In this document: in pieces, positions 2,782-40,043 of the stretch | Layout of the letters: every line of letters starts with the position of its first letter | Position numbering within the stretch: position 1 is the first letter of the stretch | Source: Escherichia phage K1ind2 | Length of the DNA stretch: 42,765 bases | Sequence record: NC_041898.1 | Reading direction: 5' to 3' (one strand) | Translations under genes and position numbers: made by a program | The notes under the pieces: generated by a model | Told to the model about the DNA's origin: nothing | Database searches by the model: none | The model's input: the letters and a program-made list of their open reading frames with translations, nothing else

Positions 2782-3858
2782 ATGCTATTAACTTTAGCGC
2801 CACAGGGTTTATCTATGAGCTTACTTACATCGCTAATCAGCCACCAGATATGGCTGCAACGCACCGCATCCGGCGAAGTGAAAGACCTCGCGCCGTTCAT
2901 TAAGGAAATGCGGGACGAAATCAAACAGCAGGTGCTGCTATTCGGTGACGACGGGCGTAGCACCGCGCGACTGAATAAACTGTTACGCGACCTGGAAGAA
3001 GCACTGGCAGGACTTACAGGTGACTGGCGAACAAAGCTGACAGAAGACCTTAAGGAACTGGCAGCGTATGAGGCGGAGTGGAACGTAAAAACGCTGACGA
3101 CTAACGTCAACGCGGAATTTGTTACACCTACCGCCGAACAGGTGTGGGCCGCTGCCGAGTTTCAGCCCTTATCGTTAAGCGACAAACCTGTTGATTTCAC
3201 TAAGCTGATGTCAGGCTGGGGTGAAACCGAAGTCGCGCGCCTGGTAACGGGTGTTAAGATGGGCTTTGTACAAGGTCAAACCACGCGGCAGATTGTTAAG
3301 AATGTTGTTGGTGCCGGTGGGCTAACTGACATATCTGAGCGCACCGCGGCTACCGTCATCCGCACCGCGCTGTCTCACGTGTCCAACGAAGCCCGTAACG
3401 AGACGTACCGCCAGAACGACGACATCATCGAGAAGTACGAGTGGGTGTCAACGCTTGACAGCCGCACCAGTACGATTTGCAGGGTCAGAGACGGAATGAC
3501 GTGGGGAATCGGTAAAGGTCCGATGCCCCCCGCCCATCCTAACTGTCGAAGTACCACGGCCCCTGTAATCAGTTCCGAGTTCGACTTCCTCGATAAAGGC
3601 GCAAAACGCGCGGCTAAAGGCGCATACGGCGGTACTCAGGTAAGCGCGGACACCACTTATTACGAGTTCCTGAAACAACAGCCTGCATGGTTTCAGGACC
3701 AGGCGCTCGGCCCTGTTCGCGGTAAGATTTTCCGTAACAGCGGTATATCGCCGGAAGAGTTTCGCGTAATATCTGTAGATGGTTTCGGGAATCCGCTCAC
3801 GCTTAAACAGATGGCGGAACTCGATAAACGTGTTGCTGATTATCTGAAAGGGGATTAA
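2782..3858 (+). CDS. Head morphogenesis / minor head protein (putative)
   Basis: 358 aa ORF after portal, the position usually occupied by an SPP1 gp7 / Mu F-like protein; assignment by synteny only. Confidence 0.5.
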   Translation: MLLTLAPQGLSMSLLTSLISHQIWLQRTASGEVKDLAPFIKEMRDEIKQQVLLFGDDGRSTARLNKLLRDLEEALAGLTGDWRTKLTEDLKELAAYEAEWNVKTLTTNVNAEFVTPTAEQVWAAAEFQPLSLSDKPVDFTKLMSGWGETEVARLVTGVKMGFVQGQTTRQIVKNVVGAGGLTDISERTAATVIRTALSHVSNEARNETYRQNDDIIEKYEWVSTLDSRTSTICRVRDGMTWGIGKGPMPPAHPNCRSTTAPVISSEFDFLDKGAKRAAKGAYGGTQVSADTTYYEFLKQQPAWFQDQALGPVRGKIFRNSGISPEEFRVISVDGFGNPLTLKQMAELDKRVADYLKGD

Positions 3859-4319
3859 TGATGGGCTTTTTCAAAGTAACTGATGTACCGTCACGTCGCG
3901 TAGTCCAGTACGCCCGCGTGTCTGGCTCTGGTGAGAACGTGGTGTTTATTGATGATGAAAGTGTACTCGGTACACCCGAAGACGATATGCCGTTTGCAGA
4001 TAAAACCGGTATTGCGTTACCCGCGGCGGGCATGCTTTATGAAATTCCGTATCTGGCGGATGCAGGTGACGTGTATTTCTCGGTGCAACCGAAAGACACC
4101 GAGCTGGTCGACGGTAGCGCCACCATCACCGTCGAAGTTAAGGCGGGTAAAGCGCCGTGTGTACTGACCTGGTACAAAGACGGCAAGGAAGTGGTAAACG
4201 CCCCAGAAGAGGCTTTGTCTCTGACGGTTAATGCTGTCGGTGAATACTTCGTTAGAGTCACCGATGCCGATGGGGTAGAGGCCGTCAGTAAAGCGGCGAA
4301 GGTTACTAAGCCAGAATAA
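3858..4319 (+). CDS. Hypothetical structural protein with C-terminal Ig-like domain
   Basis: 153 aa; start overlaps previous stop (TAATG); C-terminal LTWYKDGKEV...GEYFVRVTDADG resembles Ig-like (Big_2-type) domains; motif also seen in ORF 7320-7670. Confidence 0.5.
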   Translation: MMGFFKVTDVPSRRVVQYARVSGSGENVVFIDDESVLGTPEDDMPFADKTGIALPAAGMLYEIPYLADAGDVYFSVQPKDTELVDGSATITVEVKAGKAPCVLTWYKDGKEVVNAPEEALSLTVNAVGEYFVRVTDADGVEAVSKAAKVTKPE

Positions 4320-4324
4320 ACTGA

Positions 4325-4345
4325 AGCCCCGAAAGGGGCTTTTTA
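4325..4345 (+). terminator. Rho-independent terminator
   Basis: gccccgaaaggggc hairpin followed by TTTTT. Confidence 0.6.
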
Positions 4346-4614
4346 GTGCCTGTGATTATTACAGTTATTCCACTCAATTGTAAATGTTGGAATAAACTAT
4401 TCGAATAGTCGACTTTTCACCAAAAATGTGCTAAGCTCCACCTGAGCTTGTGAAGTATGAACAAGCGACCGCGGCGCGGCAGGTAACGGAGCCGGACGTT
4501 AAGTCCGAGTGTAGTTACGCTGACGCGTTCGGAAGGGCCATACTCTATTGCTTGTGTAAAAAGTAACTGGTTTACTGAGATTACGCCGTTTCTATGTTTA
4601 AATGATAAGTACTA

Positions 4615-4643
4615 GCGCCCCGCTTTAAGGCGGGGCTTTACTT
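4615..4643 (+). terminator. Terminator-like hairpin upstream of spanin genes
   Basis: gcgccccgc-ttta-aggcggggc stem-loop followed by T-rich run, about 20 nt before the Rz-like RBS (aaagggggaaacATG). Confidence 0.4.
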
Positions 4644-4661
4644 ATCGAGAAAGGGGGAAAC

Positions 4662-5048
4662 ATGAATCTTAAAGCAACTGTCGTAGCGGGAGCATGTTTC
4701 ATCATCCTGACTTACGCACACGGCATCTACCAGTATCGCATCGGCTGGAACGAAGGCCGGGCCAATCTCGTTTCACAGCAACAGCAGAAAGCACAGGCTG
4801 AGTTAGCGAAGAAAACACAACGGCAGCAGCAGGATGAATCAAAGGCCGCGGCTGCTGACAGCGAAGGCAAGACGAAATCAGAGGTGATTACCCGTGAAGT
4901 CGTTAAGTACATTAAAACGCCTGGTCGCAGCGTGTGCACTTTTGACCCTGAGCGCGTGCAGCTCAAGTCCCGCGCCGTCGCAAACGCCAATTCCATCCCC
5001 GGATATGACGATGATGCAGCCGCCGTGCAAACTGGCCCCGCCAAGTAG
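4662..5048 (+). CDS. i-spanin (Rz-like)
   Basis: 128 aa; N-terminal transmembrane segment (VVAGACFIILTYAHGIY) followed by Q/K/E-rich predicted coiled coil; embedded +1-frame lipoprotein ORF - the classic Rz/Rz1 overlapped architecture. Confidence 0.7.
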   Translation: MNLKATVVAGACFIILTYAHGIYQYRIGWNEGRANLVSQQQQKAQAELAKKTQRQQQDESKAAAADSEGKTKSEVITREVVKYIKTPGRSVCTFDPERVQLKSRAVANANSIPGYDDDAAAVQTGPAK

Positions 5049-5157
5049 CGACGCCGACGAGGATTTAGCTATCGACGTTCAGAATGCCGAATGTGTACGG
5101 CAACTGAGACTGAAAGTGTTCATGTTGCAGGATTACGTGAGGAATATTCTGGAATAG
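4894..5157 (+). CDS. o-spanin (Rz1-like outer membrane lipoprotein)
   Basis: 87 aa ORF starting inside the Rz-like gene in another frame and extending past its stop; signal peptide with lipobox LTLSAC; proline-rich mature region (SPAPSQTPIPSP...MQPPC). Confidence 0.7.
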   Translation: MKSLSTLKRLVAACALLTLSACSSSPAPSQTPIPSPDMTMMQPPCKLAPPSSDADEDLAIDVQNAECVRQLRLKVFMLQDYVRNILE

Positions 5158-5239
5158 TTGCCTTGCATGTTGGAATAATTTATTCTTGACATGTAAATCC
5201 GGGTGGCCCGGATTCCAACGTCCAGGGGACATACTGACT

Positions 5240-5941
5240 ATGAATCGTTTTTTACATTATCCGTTCCAGGAAGAAGCTGGGGCAGAAGATAAAGCCGGTG
5301 GCGGTGATGCGCCGAAAATGTTCACCGCGGAAGAAGTTCAGGCGCTGATTGAGAAAGAAGTTGCCGGGCTTAAGGCCAATCAGGAAGCATTACTGGCGGA
5401 GAAGAAAGAAGCCGCCCGTAAAGCAAGAGATGCCGAAGAAGAACGGCAGCGCGCGCACCAGGAGGCGTTAAAAGCCGCTGGTAAGATGGACGAGTTCGAA
5501 AAGACGATTCGTAGCCAGTATGACCCGGTGTTAGCCGAGAAAGATGGTCGCATCTCTAAAATGGCAGAGCGCATCCTCGGTAGCGAACGTAAAGCGGTGT
5601 TAGGCTCTTTCGCAGGTGACTTTATTACCCCGGAAGCAGTGGACATTCTTGCACCGTTCGTTAAGACTGAGTTCGAAGGCGATGATGTGGTTACTAAGTT
5701 TGTCGGCGCAGATGGCAACGTAATCACGACTGACCCGGAACAGTTCCGCAAATACCTGCGCGAACACAAAGCGTTTTCGCATTTGATTAAAGCAAATGCA
5801 GCTTCCGGCGGCGGGGCTTCCGGTGGCAAAGGCGGCGGGGCCGCACCAGCGTTTAAAGACATGAGTGAAGCGGAGCGTTTAGCTCTGTATAAATCGAACC
5901 CTGCCGAATTTGAACGGCAACTTAAAGCCCTGAGGAAATAA
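5240..5941 (+). CDS. Scaffolding protein (putative)
   Basis: ORF track gives 5186-5941 with a TTG start; ATG at 5240 has a GGGGA SD-like sequence upstream and is preferred. Alpha-helical, charged, E/K/A-rich protein immediately upstream of the major capsid gene. Confidence 0.5.
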   Translation: MNRFLHYPFQEEAGAEDKAGGGDAPKMFTAEEVQALIEKEVAGLKANQEALLAEKKEAARKARDAEEERQRAHQEALKAAGKMDEFEKTIRSQYDPVLAEKDGRISKMAERILGSERKAVLGSFAGDFITPEAVDILAPFVKTEFEGDDVVTKFVGADGNVITTDPEQFRKYLREHKAFSHLIKANAASGGGASGGKGGGAAPAFKDMSEAERLALYKSNPAEFERQLKALRK

Positions 5942-5943
5942 TA

Positions 5944-6993
5944 ATGGCAATTACCACTATCGGCGATATCGTAACTGGCAACATCCCGGTCCTGGCGTCT
6001 TATATGACCGAGGACCCGGTGGAAAAAACCGCGTTCTTCCAGTCCGGTATTCTGACCCCGACTCCGTACGCCGCAGAGATTGCTCGTGGTCCGTCCAACA
6101 TCGCCAACATTCCTTTCTGGAAAGCGATTGATACTTCTATCGAGCCTAATTACTCGAACGACGTATATCAGGACATCGCTACCCCGCGTAATGTGCAAAC
6201 CGGTGAGATGATGGCCCGCGTTGCGTACCTGAACGAAGGTTTTGGCCAGGCGGACCTGACTGTCGAACTGACCAGTCAGAATCCGCTGCAATCCGTAGCG
6301 TCCCGTCTGGATAACTTCTGGCAGCGTCAGGCACAACGCCGTCTGATTGCTACCGCGCTCGGTCTGTACAACGACAACGTAGCCGCTACCGATGCTTACC
6401 ACGAGCAGAATGACATGGTAATCGACGTGTCCGCTACTCTGGGCTTCGACTCCGGCGCGTTCATCGACGCTACCCAGACTATGGGCGATGCGCTGATGGC
6501 CAACGGCGGTGAAGTGCTGGGCGCTATCGCGATGCACAGCTTCGTGTACGCTCAGGCGCGTAAGCAGCAGCTTATCGATTTCATCAAAGATGCCGACAAC
6601 AACACCATGTTTGCCACCTACCAGGGCTACCGTGTGATTGTTGACGACAGCATGACCGTAGTAGGTACTGGCTCCAGCCGTAAGTTCATCTCCATCATCT
6701 TCGGCAACGGCGCTATTGGTTATGGTGAAGGCAATCCGTCCAATCCGCTGGAATACGAGCGCGAAGCGTCCCGCGGCAACGGCGGTGGCGTCGAAACCTT
6801 GTGGACCCGTAAGACCTGGTTGCTGCATCCGCTGGGCTACAGCTTCACCAGCACAGTAATCACTGGTAACGGTACTGAAACCGTAGCCCGCTCTGCTTCC
6901 TGGCAGGACCTGGCGAACGCCTCCAACTGGAACCGCGTTGTTGACCGTAAGCATGTACCGATTGCCTTCCTGGTAACTGGTGTGGGTGCTTAA
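5944..6993 (+). CDS. Major capsid protein (putative)
   Basis: 349 aa; GAGGAAA SD before ATG; directly follows scaffold-like gene; followed by strong hairpin terminator. Confidence 0.7.
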   Translation: MAITTIGDIVTGNIPVLASYMTEDPVEKTAFFQSGILTPTPYAAEIARGPSNIANIPFWKAIDTSIEPNYSNDVYQDIATPRNVQTGEMMARVAYLNEGFGQADLTVELTSQNPLQSVASRLDNFWQRQAQRRLIATALGLYNDNVAATDAYHEQNDMVIDVSATLGFDSGAFIDATQTMGDALMANGGEVLGAIAMHSFVYAQARKQQLIDFIKDADNNTMFATYQGYRVIVDDSMTVVGTGSSRKFISIIFGNGAIGYGEGNPSNPLEYEREASRGNGGGVETLWTRKTWLLHPLGYSFTSTVITGNGTETVARSASWQDLANASNWNRVVDRKHVPIAFLVTGVGA

Positions 6994-7008: not shown

Positions 7009-7034
7009 GAGAGGGACTTCGGTCCCTCTTTTCA
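7009..7034 (+). terminator. Rho-independent terminator after capsid gene
   Basis: gagggac-ttcg-gtccctc hairpin followed by TTTTC. Confidence 0.7.
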
Positions 7035-7052
7035 TTTACTAAGAGGTAAATT

Positions 7053-13777: not shown

Positions 13778-13807
13778 TTTAAATCCCTCCATTGTTGGTG
13801 TAAGTGA

Positions 13808-13836
13808 ATAGTACCCTATTATATTGGGGTGTGCAA
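13808..13836 (-). promoter_or_regulatory. Sigma70-type promoter (TTGCAC-N17-TACTAT) driving the minus-strand island
   Basis: Minus-strand TTGCAC (plus 13831-13836), 17-nt spacer, TACTAT (plus 13808-13813); 35 of 37 nt identical to the plus-strand promoter at 36087-36123. Confidence 0.6.
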
Positions 13837-26913: not shown

Positions 26914-27198
26914 CTAACTATAATAGCTAGCTATTAGGTCGTCAACCTGTTTAAACGAACCAACGACAAAAACATTCGCACCACGTTTACGCATCCGCTC
27001 ATGTTCCCGTAGCTGGTGCGGGTCTGGCTTCGTGTTCTCGTCTTTCTTAACCTCGACGAACCAGACTATGCCGCCGGGGAGAATTACCAGCAGGTCTGGG
27101 GCGCCGGAACGCCCCTCGTAGGAGAGTTTGCGAACGAGGCCGCCAAGGGCCTCGAATCGGTCTTTTGCGTATTTCTGTACGCGGCCCTCTTTAGTCAT
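26914..27198 (-). CDS. VRR-NUC domain nuclease (PD-(D/E)xK)
   Basis: ORF track 26914-27213; ATG at 27198 (ATGA overlap with upstream small ORF) preferred. Motif GAPDLLVILPGGIVWFVEVKK matches the D...E-x-K core of VRR-NUC proteins. Confidence 0.6.
   Translation of the reverse strand: MTKEGRVQKYAKDRFEALGGLVRKLSYEGRSGAPDLLVILPGGIVWFVEVKKDENTKPDPHQLREHERMRKRGANVFVVGSFKQVDDLIASYYS
26917..26945 (-). promoter_or_regulatory. Sigma70-type promoter (TTGACG-N17-TATAGT), copy 1 of 3
   Basis: Minus-strand -35 TTGACG (plus 26940-26945), 17-nt spacer, -10 TATAGT (plus 26917-26922); about 31-bp element conserved with 30471-30499 and 32569-32597. Confidence 0.6.
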
Positions 27199-30470: not shown

Positions 30471-30499
30471 ACTATAATAGCTAACTATTCAGGTGTCAA
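30471..30499 (-). promoter_or_regulatory. Sigma70-type promoter (TTGACA-N17-TATAGT), copy 2 of 3
   Basis: Minus-strand -35 TTGACA (plus 30494-30499), 17-nt spacer, -10 TATAGT (plus 30471-30476). Confidence 0.6.
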
Positions 30500-32568: not shown

Positions 32569-32597
32569 ACTATAATAGCGAACTATTCACTTGTCAA
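32569..32597 (-). promoter_or_regulatory. Sigma70-type promoter (TTGACA-N17-TATAGT), copy 3 of 3
   Basis: Minus-strand -35 TTGACA (plus 32592-32597), 17-nt spacer, -10 TATAGT (plus 32569-32574). Confidence 0.6.
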
Positions 32598-32661
32598 CGG
32601 GCTTTTCTAAAATAATTAATATGGTACTATTCACATATCAACTGACTAAGGAGTAATTGAC

Positions 32662-35765: not shown

Positions 35766-36086
35766 AATGGCTTTAGTTAAGAATTACTTAGAAACAATAT
35801 TCTTAAGTCTCGGGTACTTAAAGCCCCGCCATAAAGCGGGGCGCTAAATAGTACTCTTGGTAACGTTAGTATCTAAGTTTCCTCAAAGTAACAGCAAGTG
35901 GCAAGAAAGCCCCCGTCTATTTAAATTTTACCCTCCTTCATAAGACACTGATAATTAAAAGTTTCTATAGTTGCCGTAAACGTGGAAGAGAGTACTTCAC
36001 TTCGCTGGGGTGGGCTAACGCCCACCCACTGCGTTGCGTACTCTTTTAAGAAACGAAAGAATCACAACGGCAACGTAACTATTCTC

Positions 36087-36115
36087 TTGCACACCCCAAC
36101 ATAATAGGATACTAT
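36087..36115 (+). promoter_or_regulatory. Sigma70-type early promoter (TTGCAC-N17-TACTAT)
   Basis: -35 TTGCAC 36087-36092, 17-nt spacer, -10 TACTAT 36110-36115; about 35 nt upstream of ATG 36150; near-identical copies at 13808-13836 (minus) and 37387-37415. Confidence 0.65.
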
Positions 36116-36149
36116 TCACTTATCGAGACGAGACAGAGGAGTGAGGGTT

Positions 36150-37386: not shown

Positions 37387-37415
37387 TTGCACACTAAGAT
37401 AGAATAGGCTACTAT
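37387..37415 (+). promoter_or_regulatory. Sigma70-type early promoter (TTGCAC-N17-TACTAT)
   Basis: -35 TTGCAC 37387-37392, 17-nt spacer, -10 TACTAT 37410-37415; same family as 36087-36115. Confidence 0.6.
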
Positions 37416-37445
37416 TCATTTACACAAGCGAGAGGAGAGACAGAG

Positions 37446-38692: not shown

Positions 38693-39001
38693 TTGGATAA
38701 ATTTACTGAAACAGTGACGGGGTGGCTTCTCGCTGCCGCACTGGTCGGTGGATTGGTCGGGCTAAGACAACATAAAAAGTCTATATCCGGGCCGATTGAC
38801 GGACTGGTATTTCTTCTCACCGGCTTCGCGTGTGCTATTTTCGGTGCACCTCTTGCCGCTCAATGGTTCGGTATTACCGGTGAGCGCGAGATAGCTGGCC
38901 TCGGATTCATCATTGCCATTCTCTGGATGCCTATCTATTCCCGCCTTTCTGGCATCGTATCGGGCAGCGATATTGCCCGCCCAGGAGGACCGCATGACTG
39001 A
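38693..39001 (+). CDS. Holin (putative, three transmembrane segments)
   Basis: 102 aa; TTG start 6 nt after a GGAGGA SD; three hydrophobic segments and charged C-terminus; located two genes upstream of the endolysin. Confidence 0.5.
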   Translation: MDKFTETVTGWLLAAALVGGLVGLRQHKKSISGPIDGLVFLLTGFACAIFGAPLAAQWFGITGEREIAGLGFIIAILWMPIYSRLSGIVSGSDIARPGGPHD

Positions 39002-39266
39002 GCTATTCTGGTTTGTCGTAATGCTGGCAATGGGCGCTTCGTCCCTGTTCAACGTGTATAATGAACGCGTGGACGACGGGCTGTTCGGGCGTGTTCTCTA
39101 TATCCTGACTGCTATCGTCTGTGCCGCCGGATGTATTCACCTGTTACAGGGCAGCATGTCGCCTACGCTGCCTGAGACATTAATCACATTAGTCGCGCTG
39201 CGCCAGATTCGCCAGGCGTGGCTGTCATACGGAGGGCATAAGCGTGTCTCGAAATATTTCAGATAA
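38994..39266 (+). CDS. Second small membrane protein of lysis cassette (holin/antiholin-like)
   Basis: ORF track 38913-39266; ATG 38994 with AGGAGG SD preferred (90 aa); two hydrophobic segments; overlaps endolysin start. Confidence 0.45.
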   Translation: MTELFWFVVMLAMGASSLFNVYNERVDDGLFGRVLYILTAIVCAAGCIHLLQGSMSPTLPETLITLVALRQIRQAWLSYGGHKRVSKYFR

Positions 39267-39729
39267 TGGATTGCATTTCTGTGCCGCGTTCGAGGGATTC
39301 CGCGGAACTGCGTATCGCGCTACGCCGAACGAGAAGTACCTGACTATTGGTTATGGTCACTACGGGCCAGACGTAACACCAGGTAAGACCATCACGCCAG
39401 GGCAAGGCCTCCTGTTACTGAATCGTGATATGGCTAAGGCTGTAGCTGCGGTTGACGCAGCAGCACACCACTCCCTGACACAGGCGCAGTTTGATGCAGT
39501 GTGCGACCTGGTCTATAACGCAGGTGCTGGCGTGATTGCGTCTACTACGGGCACAGGCAAGGCACTGCGTTCTGGTGATACTGCAACACTGCGGGCTAAG
39601 CTGGCGCTGTTCATCAACCAGAACGGCAAACCACTACTTGGCCTGCGTCGCCGTACAGCCGGGCGTCTGGCGCTGTTCGACGGTAAACCGTGGCAAGAGG
39701 CTGAGGCTATTGGGAGGGCTGTTAAATGA
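39244..39729 (+). CDS. Endolysin, lysozyme-like (glycoside hydrolase family 24-type)
   Basis: 161 aa; N-terminal FEGFRGTAY...TIGYGH resembles the catalytic Glu/Asp/Thr region of T4 E / lambda R-type lysozymes. Confidence 0.75.
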   Translation: MSRNISDNGLHFCAAFEGFRGTAYRATPNEKYLTIGYGHYGPDVTPGKTITPGQGLLLLNRDMAKAVAAVDAAAHHSLTQAQFDAVCDLVYNAGAGVIASTTGTGKALRSGDTATLRAKLALFINQNGKPLLGLRRRTAGRLALFDGKPWQEAEAIGRAVK

Positions 39730-39994: not shown

Positions 39995-40014
39995 CTGTTT
40001 TCTGTAATGACTAG

Positions 40015-40043
40015 TTGACTATTACCTTAGACCCTATTATATT
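40015..40043 (+). promoter_or_regulatory. Candidate sigma70 promoter (TTGACT-N17-TATATT)
   Basis: TTGACT 40015-40020, 17-nt spacer, TATATT 40038-40043; about 35 nt upstream of ATG 40077. Confidence 0.5.

Follow-up and report, generated by a model that had tools for sequence, protein, structure and literature searches.

A conserved RNA leader with a putative promoter precedes the overlapped spanin genes among the head genes of Escherichia phage K1ind2

The overlapped spanin genes of Escherichia phage K1ind2 are located among the head genes and are preceded by a conserved, folded and unannotated RNA leader with its own putative promoter. This leader is the new element of our analysis, as the spanin pair itself has already been annotated and published, along with the family to which it belongs, the overlap of its two genes and their location apart from the holin and endolysin genes. 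The analyzed window (42,765 nucleotides; NC_041898.1) comprises the whole genome, circular or permuted, of a Kagunavirus with 99.8% identity to phage K1ind1. We consider it likely that the two genes encode a two-component spanin and are the promoter-proximal genes of a late unit that also contains the leader, acting in cis, and the scaffold and major capsid genes.

The Spanin Pair Belongs to the Jersey Family

The two spanin genes are organized as follows.

4662..5048, + strand: i-spanin gene, 128 aa, Jersey family, predicted type II inner-membrane protein (phrog_2536 'Rz-like spanin', E = 1.8e-56)
4894..5157, + strand: o-spanin gene, 87 aa, predicted outer-membrane lipoprotein precursor (phrog_5672, E = 4.6e-30; phrog_1267, E = 1e-20)

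A first-pass annotation of this DNA had described an overlapped i-spanin/o-spanin pair, and it was right: the open reading frames, the transmembrane domain, the lipobox and the PHROG spanin families agree, and every feature that it named was found where it had been placed. Both genes carry a spanin annotation in the GenBank records of phages K1ind1, K1G and Shashou. The i-spanin shows 100% identity to that of K1ind1 and 63–68% to those of Jerseyvirus members. Phages K1ind1, K1ind2, K1G and Jersey are listed members of the 'Jersey' family of overlapped two-component spanins, in which the overlap is 155 bp (Kongari et al., 2018; PMC6139136). Both protein sequences and the overlapped architecture place the pair in this family, and the proteins show no difference from it; the 155-bp overlap and the conserved periplasmic cysteines are shared. 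The rare 'separated' variants of the family (FSL SP-031 type) match locus L037 and phage St162. The spanin function of the Jersey family is a bioinformatic prediction, and no experimental test of it was found in the literature. The pair is Rz/Rz1-like in predicted function, yet falls outside the Pfam Rz/Rz1 families by sequence: neither protein matched any Pfam family at E ≤ 0.01, and the NCBIfam model NF038368 (P2_Rz1) scored 14.9 bits (E = 0.022), below its curated cutoff of 27 bits.

The i-spanin has an ATG start with the SD sequence GGGGG 6 nt upstream. Its N-terminus contains K4 and then the hydrophobic residues 5–23 (ATVVAGACFIILTYAHGIY; Kyte-Doolittle 19-residue mean 1.59), followed by a hydrophilic remainder of 104 aa with one periplasmic cysteine (Cys92), which corresponds to a single N-terminal transmembrane domain in the N-in topology of a type II protein. 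The o-spanin has a GTG start and is read in the +1 frame relative to the i-spanin. The lipoprotein signal on which the earlier claim for this embedded frame hinged is present by pattern rules: the signal peptide (MKSLSTLKRLVAACALLTLSA/C) has K/R in the n-region and ends in the lipobox LSAC with Cys22, and the +2 residue is Ser and not the inner-membrane retention residue Asp, in agreement with a lipoprotein. Both the PROSITE-type lipobox pattern and the rule of Kongari et al. fitted the o-spanin. Jerseyvirus relatives carry LSGC or LNGC as lipobox. The mature o-spanin is a proline-rich protein of 66 aa with two further cysteines in the motifs PPCK and AEC. These two, the lipobox cysteine and Cys92 of the i-spanin are all kept across Kagunavirus and Jerseyvirus, and both spanins have periplasmic cysteines available for intermolecular disulfides. 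No other credible o-spanin was found in a genome-wide lipobox scan.

The genes overlap by 155 nt and the o-spanin runs 109 nt past the i-spanin stop. Diversity at the three codon positions amounts to 0.108/0.084/0.232 in the i-spanin-only region and 0.084/0.033/0.242 in the o-spanin-only region, indicating purifying selection on each gene in its own frame. It is scarcely credible that the embedded frame is open by chance and that only the 128-aa protein is made, despite the GTG start, the missing Pfam match and the fact that substitutions inside the overlap follow the i-spanin frame. Such a chance frame would have to be intact in 47 of the 47 related loci tested, show a third-position excess past the overlap (0.242 vs 0.084 and 0.033), keep its lipobox cysteine and two more cysteines across genera and match the two PHROG o-spanin families with the E-values given above. 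In addition, its homologue in St162 and L037 is a separate, non-embedded gene.

The Spanin Genes Are Located Among the Head Genes

The neighboring head genes and the other lysis genes are located as follows.

3858-4319: Hoc-like/Ig-like head decoration gene, upstream neighbor of the spanin locus
5240-5941, + strand: scaffold gene (phrog_206), with an alternative annotated TTG start at 5186
5944-6993, + strand: major capsid gene, in the same orientation as the spanin genes
38693-39001, + strand: holin (PHROG and Pfam matches of the lysis genes: phrog_2359, phrog_2508, PF00959)
38994-39266, + strand: second holin/antiholin
39244-39729, + strand: endolysin (PF00959, E = 3.9e-27)

The spanin genes are thus found, as had been proposed, between head-morphogenesis and scaffold genes (3858-4319 and 5240-5941). 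The first-pass annotation had further placed them far from the holin and endolysin genes. They are indeed separate from that cassette (38693..39729), as was already stated in print in a genome announcement, but not distant from it: across the genome origin, only 7.7 kb separate the endolysin stop from the i-spanin start downstream of it, and both genes are on the same strand.

Comparison with related phages recovered the same placement. Spanin genes between head-morphogenesis and scaffold genes were found in 492 phage records when DNA was compared and in 660 when proteins were; about 500 Guernseyvirinae records and Dhillonvirus show this order, and individual examples are St162, VLCpiS11a, Otaku and the Dhillonvirus McMelon. 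The slot is an old syntenic feature common to Guernseyvirinae and Dhillonvirus, and a placement among head genes is ordinary for this lineage. Promoter P1 and the leader, both described below, are a Guernseyvirinae addition. The 1995 record X87092 of phage MB78 spans the same locus.

Transcription Signals Around the Spanin Genes

Four signals frame the putative unit.

4324..4345, + strand: intrinsic terminator T1 after the Hoc-like gene, stem AAGCCCC-GAAA-GGGGCTT (4324-4341), then TTTTT
4384..4402, + strand: first copy of a 19-nt direct repeat, ATGTTGGAATAAACTATTC, shortly before promoter P1
4409..4437, + strand: putative promoter P1, sigma-70 extended -10 (TCGACT, 17 bp, TGcTAAGCT)
7009..7042, + strand: terminator T3 after the major capsid gene, GAGAGGGAC-TTCG-GTCCCTCTT, then TTCATTTACT

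Two hairpins had been read as terminators upstream of the spanin genes. The first, at 4324-4341, stands as T1 with its U-tract; it was flagged by the terminator scan in the minus strand listing, and its + strand tail is TTTTTAG. The second, at 4617-4636, turned out to be the apex of a conserved RNA helix (see below). The activity of promoter P1 is suggested by its conserved match to the consensus. Relatives have TTGACT, an invariant 17-bp spacer and TGnTA(A/C)GCT; Kagunavirus and Jerseyvirus agree in both hexamers, in the TG and in the spacing, but not in the letters of the spacer or at the 'n'. The -35 hexamer of K1ind2 is TCGACT, a T-to-C change from the TTGACT of nearly all relatives, and it lies inside a copy of a genome-wide AATAG-N5-CTATT palindrome. 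The 19-nt repeat occurs just twice in the window, at 4384 and 5167, and was dropped as a candidate general phage promoter on that count. Both copies occupy the same offsets in most Kagunavirus loci; they may represent either a site for a shared regulator or the relic of a duplication.

Downstream of the spanin genes, T3 is the first terminator, and the Shashou record annotates a terminator there. The scan of the window returned no + strand terminator-like site between 4637 and 7008, and there is no terminator between the o-spanin stop and T3 in the window or in the Jerseyvirus locus L043, which has equivalents of T1 (2687-2707) and T3 (5359-5376). Transcripts from promoter P1 should therefore continue into the scaffold and major capsid genes. 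No transcript maps for Jerseyvirus or Guernseyvirinae were found in the literature.

These signals bear on the earlier proposal of an independently transcribed unit with its own timing. The conserved promoter signal behind T1 upholds the independent start, but the unit is not closed downstream, given that no terminator precedes T3. A self-contained, separately timed unit that extends from its own promoter to the next one is thus rather improbable. Besides the conservation of promoter P1, it can draw on the separated pair of the St162 type, a closed unit with a bidirectional terminator and an opposite-strand gene on its downstream side. Neither K1ind2 nor Jerseyvirus has such a terminator after the spanin genes, however, and the i-spanin gene of Dhillonvirus, which has no promoter of its own, begins in an overlap (GTGA) with the stop of the head-morphogenesis gene before it. 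This overlap is consistent with translational coupling and suggests that the pair is expressed late in the ordinary way, together with the head genes. The sequence carries no information on timing, and that part of the proposal is unsupported.

A Conserved Structured RNA Leader

Between promoter P1 and the i-spanin gene we found a folded leader with the following parts.

4444..4661, + strand: structured RNA leader, about 220 nt (fold energy, covariance model, covariation)
4446-4466, + strand: leader hairpin P1
4469-4532, + strand: leader hairpin P2, long and irregular
4533-4553, + strand: conserved single-stranded stretch, GAAGGGCC...UAUUGCUU
4554-4586, + strand: leader hairpin P3, in Kagunavirus only
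4603-4647, + strand: composite leader hairpin P4, with a GC-rich tip at 4617-4636

The leader folds with an MFE of -82 kcal/mol (z = -3.87), and covariance model R1 places it upstream of the i-spanin gene in 48 of 48 loci. In the alignment, 98.2% of cells are paired and 22 pairs are changed on both sides; the covariation score is 0.204, compared to 0.009-0.044 with slid partners, and was reached by none of 500 shuffles. RNAalifold run on the same alignment placed 40 of its 41 pairs inside the given structure, corresponding to hairpins P1 and P2 and the core of P4; it did not recover the outer leader helix across genera. A search against Rfam 15 gave nothing at the gathering threshold anywhere in the window and only chance-level hits within 4300-5260 (E ≥ 2.2), while tRNA and tmRNA searches of the window found nothing. 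No RNA annotation is given for the leader in 179 phage records, and several GenBank records mis-annotate it as a small 'hypothetical protein'. We rejected this coding assignment: of 39 distinct leaders, only 3 keep the 38-aa open reading frame at 4450-4566 intact; it is reduced to a frame-shifted 19-aa version in most Kagunavirus leaders and has no start codon in Jerseyvirus.

The hairpin at 4617-4636, taken earlier for a second terminator, forms the tip of a long RNA helix that is conserved; its U-tract is weak here and absent in Jerseyvirus. It was flagged as terminator-like in the window, where its tail (TTTACTTATC) contains only three consecutive U. In Jerseyvirus the P4 tail is CTTAGCGTAT and the site was not flagged. 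The tail forms one strand of the conserved, covarying lower helix and pairs with the upstream A-rich strand.

Two other readings of the leader were weighed. The stretch 4444-4650 could be a free-standing small RNA gene of ~200 nt that ends at P4 and acts on host or phage transcripts, with the spanins expressed only by read-through or upstream transcription. The succession of a promoter, a structured RNA and a GC hairpin flagged as terminator-like would suit such a gene, as would the two conserved single-stranded segments within 4533-4553, a possible seed, and the exchange of the leader type independently of the spanin type in the mosaic genomes L035, L036 and L049. We nevertheless regard it as unlikely. 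The Jerseyvirus hairpin is followed by CUUAGCGUAU, which is not terminator-like, and the three consecutive U of K1ind2 are paired within the conserved helix. Pairing of the single strand with other phage mRNAs was rejected, since the best complementary target in the phage genome (-24.4 kcal/mol) was no better than the shuffled controls (-24 to -30). Moreover, as T1 is strong, the spanin genes would have no evident promoter if there were no read-through from promoter P1, and the same would apply to the scaffold and capsid genes unless the candidate scaffold promoter is real.

In lambda, transcription from the late promoter first yields a short terminated RNA, and the lysis genes and then the head genes follow downstream. 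Promoter P1, the leader and P4 might similarly work as a switch by antitermination or attenuation, of the lambda pR'-6S RNA-tR' or HK022 put kind, in which the polymerase halts at P4 unless a phage factor or the nascent leader modifies it, gating the spanin and head genes until late. The likeness in layout extends to the order of the elements: a promoter, a structured transcript of ~200 nt, a GC hairpin, lysis genes and head genes. A second, weaker match to the leader model (36063-35798, minus strand, 31 bits) at the start of the leftward early operon would recall paired elements such as putL/putR, but nearly all of it comes from a near-identical GC hairpin, and the remainder aligns poorly. 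No Q-like or other antiterminator was found among the nine small ORF products scanned at 37.5-42 kb, whose sole recognized PHROG function is an ASCH-type 'RNA-binding protein'. With a U-tract that is weak here and not conserved, and no sequence or Rfam relation to the lambda leader, we consider a switch of this kind very improbable.

The most likely role is that of a 5' untranslated leader acting on its own transcript. Phage St162 has an unrelated, strongly folded leader at the same place (z = -5.71). It is tentatively conceivable that 4444-4661 is a new phage-specific regulatory RNA acting in cis, with analogous leaders at the same place across Guernseyvirinae. We also considered that the leader hides the ribosome binding site of the i-spanin gene; this effect is weak and not conserved, and was kept as a weak possibility only. 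In Kagunavirus the unpaired probability of the SD sequence is 0.40-0.45 with the leader and 0.66-0.85 without it, whereas in Jerseyvirus it is 0.60-0.72, essentially open.

A Conserved Element Upstream of the Scaffold Gene

A second region of interest was delimited by alignment of relatives.

5141..5239, + strand: candidate conserved regulatory element before the scaffold gene

It contains GGAATA repeats, copy 2 of the 19-nt repeat (5167-5185), a candidate extended -10 (TGgAATAAT at 5171-5179), TTGACA at 5186-5191, the hairpin AUCCGGG-UGG-CCCGGAU at 5197-5213 and the SD sequence CAGGGGA. The first-pass annotation had recognized a promoter-like element downstream of the spanin genes. As a sigma-70 -35 hexamer TTGACA was rejected, for it has no -10 partner at 16-18 bp and reads TTGTTA in Jerseyvirus; a scaffold promoter probably does exist within a conserved 80-nt element, with hexamers that are not assignable. 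This is probable because St162 keeps the element directly 5' of its scaffold gene, behind the terminator and the opposite-strand gene. The hairpin at 5197-5213 recurs with a covarying stem base in VLCpiS11a, Otaku and the Dhillonvirus McMelon. Located in the scaffold 5' UTR from Guernseyvirinae to Dhillonvirus, it is possibly a translational operator for autoregulation of the scaffold gene.

Comparison With Known Spanin Systems

The pair resembles lambda Rz/Rz1 in combining a type II inner-membrane protein with an outer-membrane lipoprotein in the +1 frame, in its periplasmic cysteines and in its presumed role in the last lysis step. In contrast, lambda Rz1 is fully embedded whereas the o-spanin of K1ind2 extends beyond the i-spanin stop, and the lambda pair ends the S-R-Rz/Rz1 cassette whereas the K1ind2 pair is found among head genes. 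With P2 LysB/LysC it shares an overlapped, not embedded, organization and the faint, below-cutoff signal to the P2_Rz1 (LysC) model; homology to P2 LysC is not established by such a signal. The P2 pair adjoins its holin and endolysin genes, from which the K1ind2 pair is separate. A precedent for spanin genes that do not adjoin the holin and endolysin genes is given by T4 pseT.3/pseT.2 (PMC6139136), which are separated genes outside the head cluster, while those of K1ind2 are overlapped and among head genes. An upstream promoter or leader is not discussed for the Jersey family in that study.

Proposed Organization of the Late Unit and Its Implications

We infer that promoter P1 is used, that the spanin genes are co-transcribed with head genes and that the leader is functional. 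The unit would then comprise promoter P1 (4409-4437), the leader of ~220 nt, the i- and o-spanin genes, the scaffold gene, the major capsid gene and T3 (7009-7030), and the probable second promoter before the scaffold gene would raise the output of head proteins. As a 5' UTR, the leader may set the level of the spanin message through mRNA stability, processing or partial attenuation at P4. As P4 was flagged as terminator-like in K1ind2, some or most transcripts from promoter P1 might stop before the spanin genes. The i-spanin would be anchored in the inner membrane through its N-terminal helix and the o-spanin, as a lipoprotein, would be targeted to the outer membrane. On the model of lambda Rz/Rz1, both would join via their periplasmic C-termini into a complex restrained by the peptidoglycan mesh. 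Once the holin has triggered and the endolysin has degraded the wall, this complex would complete lysis by fusing the inner membrane with the outer one. Loss of a two-component spanin characteristically causes a lysis defect, with spherical cells, when divalent cations are present.

Spanin genes can occur outside a lysis cassette, and in this lineage they travel with the head module, which is relevant to automated annotation and to the engineering of therapeutic Kagunavirus and Jerseyvirus phages. Both the leader and the scaffold hairpin are cheap to test in widely used K1 and Salmonella therapy phages. If the leader acts as proposed, processing, attenuation or stabilization at P4 would determine the level of spanin expression or its onset, and perhaps those of the scaffold and capsid too, a layer of lysis gene control that has not been described for spanins. 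The leader and the hairpin could show how these phages, which lack an RNA polymerase of their own, set very different outputs of spanins and capsid protein within one transcription unit.

Identity of the spanin pair

The spanin pair is real, ordinary for its lineage and already published. The phage K1ind2 sequence is a complete genome with the large terminase gene at its start, and the 951 bases around the pair are 99.8% identical to those of Escherichia phage K1ind1 (Kagunavirus, Guernseyvirinae). Searches with this segment hit 347 phage records (megablast) or 492 (blastn); almost all belong to Kagunavirus and Jerseyvirus phages infecting E. coli and Salmonella.

4662-5048 (+), i-spanin gene: 128 aa, with a 19-residue hydrophobic stretch after Lys4
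4894-5157 (+), o-spanin gene: 87 aa, +1 frame, GTG start preceded by GAGGTGA

The overlapped two-component pair of the first-pass annotation was recovered as described, with both genes sharing 155 nt. The proposed lipoprotein signal of the embedded gene is also present: its signal peptide (MKSLSTLKRLVAACALLTLSA) ends directly before the lipobox Cys22, with Ser at +2, leaving a mature protein of 66 aa that is rich in proline and contains two more cysteines. A lipobox scan of all six frames revealed no second credible o-spanin candidate. The 87-aa frame is open in all 47 related loci, and Jerseyvirus o-spanins conserve the lipobox Cys (LSGC or LNGC) and both other cysteines. Diversity by codon position has a third-position excess in the i-spanin-only part (0.232 vs 0.108 and 0.084) and in the o-spanin-only part (0.242 vs 0.084 and 0.033). 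The i-spanin frame dominates in the overlap, as expected since the other frame encodes signal peptide and linker.

Both proteins fall into ‘Rz-like spanin’ families of PHROGs (E = 1.8e-56 and 4.6e-30). Neither matched a Pfam family and the NCBIfam P2 LysC model scored 14.9 bits, below its cutoff of 27; by sequence, the pair therefore belongs to neither the lambda nor the P2 families. Judged by its sequence, it is a member of the Jersey family that is predicted to work like lambda Rz/Rz1, the likeness lying in the working and not in sequence-family membership. Kongari et al. (2018; PMC6139136) defined this ‘Jersey’ family of the overlapped class, named K1ind1, K1ind2, K1G and others as members, reported the 155-bp overlap and discussed rare separated variants. 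Both genes are annotated as spanins in the K1ind1, K1G and Shashou records, the last naming i-spanin and o-spanin and mentioning the lipobox.

Position in the head module

The location among head genes held up in the synteny comparison: all relatives examined have a MuF-like head-morphogenesis gene on one side of the pair and the scaffold gene on the other. Many phages have an additional Ig-like decoration gene between the head-morphogenesis gene and the spanins. The position is shared by the distant Guernseyvirinae St162, Klebsiella phage VLCpiS11a and Serratia phage Otaku. A tblastn search with the i-spanin reached 660 phage records, with Dhillonvirus as the most distant; in Dhillonvirus McMelon the pair again separates head-morphogenesis and scaffold genes, and the i-spanin start codon shares bases with the stop codon of the gene before it (GTGA), leaving no intergenic region. 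The shared position in Guernseyvirinae and Dhillonvirus thus indicates that the head-module location is old, while the intergenic region before the pair is specific to Guernseyvirinae.

The holin, second holin/antiholin and PF00959 endolysin genes (38693-39729) are indeed separate from the spanins, but calling them far away was an overstatement: the endolysin stop lies 7.7 kb upstream of the i-spanin gene across the genome origin, on the same strand. Such a separation has been described in a genome announcement, other genome papers concurring in passing, and in T4, the textbook example, the spanin genes are likewise not linked to those for holin and endolysin (PMC6139136).

Three IMG/VR loci (L035, L036, L049) have a mosaic junction at the i-spanin start (around locus position 3001): before it, promoter and leader share about 95% identity with K1ind2, but the spanins, downstream spacer and scaffold gene are Jerseyvirus-like (only 74-82% identity). 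In some Kagunavirus genomes (L008, L013, L026, L028, L031, L032) a module has been swapped exactly at the scaffold start codon: the spanin pair and the upstream element are nearly unchanged, but the scaffold gene behind them is unrelated (N-terminus MSEEVKDE...; its first 700 nt share about 60% DNA identity).

Upstream transcription signals

4324-4341 + TTTTT (+), canonical terminator T1 after the decoration gene (sequence, terminator scan)
4409-4437, promoter-like element P1
4444-4661, RNA leader upstream of the i-spanin gene

A dedicated upstream promoter is supported by P1, which reads TTGACT, 17 bp, TGnTAAGCT in nearly all relatives and T(A/T)GACT, 17 bp, TGnTACGCT in Jerseyvirus. Hexamers, TG and spacing are constant and the spacer sequence and ‘n’ vary, which is the footprint to be expected of an extended -10 sigma-70 promoter. 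The -35 hexamer (4409-4414) is TCGACT in K1ind2 and K1ind1 and TTGACT in every other Kagunavirus leader examined, which may weaken P1 in this lineage.

Other elements surround P1. A leftward promoter-like site (4355-4384, -; TTTACA-18-TGtAATAAT, 10/12 matches, with TG) diverges from it and is conserved in Jerseyvirus (L043 2721-2750); in K1ind2 the T1 hairpin, which is bidirectional, would lie directly in the path of its transcripts. Two direct copies of a 19-nt repeat (ATGTTGGAATAAnnTATTC; 4384-4402 and 5167-5185), the only ones in the genome, bracket the promoter-leader-spanin module. TTGAC(T/A) follows both, at +6 after the first copy and at 0 after the second; the repeat may mark either a shared regulator site or a past duplication of the promoter region. 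The quasi-palindrome AATAG-N5-CTATT occurs in intergenic promoter regions (24 matches vs 8.1 expected; 2775-2789, 4403-4417, 5152-5166, 13806-13827, 26921-26935, 30475-30489, 32573-32632, 36096-36117, 37402-37416, 40009-40023). It overlaps the -10 of early promoters (TTGCAC-17-TACTAT); the copies at P1 and 40015 contain the -35 TTGACT. Its counterpart in Kagunavirus fBC-Eco01 is the PHIRE motif tgAATAGTa-ccTATTat-T, which was attributed to a ‘phage RNA polymerase’ promoter (PMC9825357). No RNA polymerase gene was seen in the K1ind2 genome, and a regulator operator is the more likely role. In Klebsiella phage VLCpiS11a, the same position upstream of the spanins (L053 1340-1600) holds a different operator-like set: ACTCGCAAAATTTTGCGAGT, a 20-bp palindrome without mismatches, together with several additional TTTGCGAG repeats.

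A conserved structured leader

The 218-nt leader, from the presumed start (about 4444) to the i-spanin ATG, folds at -82 kcal/mol (z = -3.87 vs shuffles). A covariance model of 22 Kagunavirus sequences matched upstream of the i-spanin gene in 48/48 Kagunavirus, Jerseyvirus and MB78 loci, with 55-69 bits in Jerseyvirus at only about 62% identity. Paired cells make up 98.2% of the resulting alignment, and both sides vary in 22 of the 67 pairs. The covariation score of 0.204 (vs 0.009-0.044 with slid partners) was reached in none of 500 shuffles, and at several pairs L017, L029 and the Jerseyvirus clade changed independently, giving three or four pair types. As the alignment had been fitted to the model, RNAalifold was additionally run on it and placed 40 of its 41 predicted pairs inside the given structure, recovering three helices:

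4446-4466, 5' hairpin
4469-4532, long hairpin
4603-4647, 3' composite hairpin (core)

Two hairpin terminators had been proposed upstream of the spanins. T1 is canonical, whereas the second (4617-4636) proved to be the tip of the 3' composite hairpin, part of a larger conserved RNA helix. Its tail has three U in K1ind2; Jerseyvirus has CUUAGCGUAU instead, and the scan called no terminator there. The tail also pairs with an upstream strand, and compensatory changes keep the pairing (GAUAAGUA/UACUUAUC vs AUAUACG/CGUAUA).

The leader had no Rfam match, and a protein gene was rejected, the annotated 38-aa ORF not being conserved. Kagunavirus-type leaders with at least 90% identity occur in 179 phage records, and the sampled ones annotate nothing or a ‘hypothetical protein’ there. 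St162 has an unrelated, even more strongly folded leader (z = -5.71), and Otaku has a hairpin like the long hairpin followed by the shared CAUUCGGAA motif. The divergent early promoter region contains a second, weak model match (35798-36063, -; 31 bits). This match owes its score to a near-identical hairpin (UAGCGCCCCGCUUUAUGGCGGGGCUUUA; 35818-35850) with a similar lower stem, and the 291-nt stretch around it (35780-36070) has a fold z of -4.29.

Predicted transcription into the scaffold and capsid genes

The terminator scan found no terminator-like site after the spanins before 7009-7030, 3' of the major capsid gene, and likewise none between the spanins and the post-capsid site in Jerseyvirus L043. 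In K1ind2, transcripts entering the spanin genes should therefore continue into the scaffold and capsid genes. An independently transcribed unit thus stands as far as its upstream promoter is concerned, but it is not closed, and a timing of its own is not supported. A closed spanin unit does exist in some relatives, as shown by St162, where the spanins are followed by a bidirectional terminator and a gene on the opposite strand.

The o-spanin/scaffold spacer (82 nt) is highly conserved, and St162 keeps the same element directly before the scaffold gene despite its terminator and opposite-strand gene, which makes a scaffold promoter within it probable. TTGACA (5186), the basis of the suggested downstream promoter, was rejected as its -35, having no -10 partner and reading TTGTTA in Jerseyvirus. 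The best candidate, a tentative one, is the extended -10 TGgAATAAT (5171-5179).

The scaffold 5' untranslated region also contains a hairpin (5197-5213; C(C/G)GGG-UGG-CCC(G/C)G) whose stem base covaries (AU / ACA:UGU / AG:CU / GAG:CUC) and which lies about 25 nt upstream of the SD sequence CAGGGG. It is kept in Kagunavirus, Jerseyvirus, Klebsiella and Serratia Guernseyvirinae and even Dhillonvirus (L043; about 2548-2565 in L052, 2506-2524 in L053, 2457-2473 in L054 and 4666-4682 in L055). It could act as a translational operator, by analogy with P22 scaffold autoregulation, or as a 5' stabiliser. Within the scaffold gene, K1ind2 conserves the heptamer GTTTAAA (5851-5857), which matches a site that the MB78 record X87092 (1995) annotates as ‘ribosomal frame shifting’ (p26/p28).

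Possible role of the leader

Occlusion of the i-spanin ribosome-binding site by the leader is weak and not conserved. The leader might be a free-standing small RNA; no phage target stands out for its single-stranded segment. It might also be an antitermination switch; no antiterminator was recognised among nine small ORF products scanned between 37.5 and 42 kb. Mosaic genomes join a Kagunavirus-type leader to Jerseyvirus-like spanins, so the leader is independent of pairing with the coding sequence. Our preferred reading is a 5' untranslated region that acts in cis, affecting the stability or processing of its mRNA or causing partial attenuation at the long helix of the 3' composite hairpin. 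The leader is worth a short experimental look.
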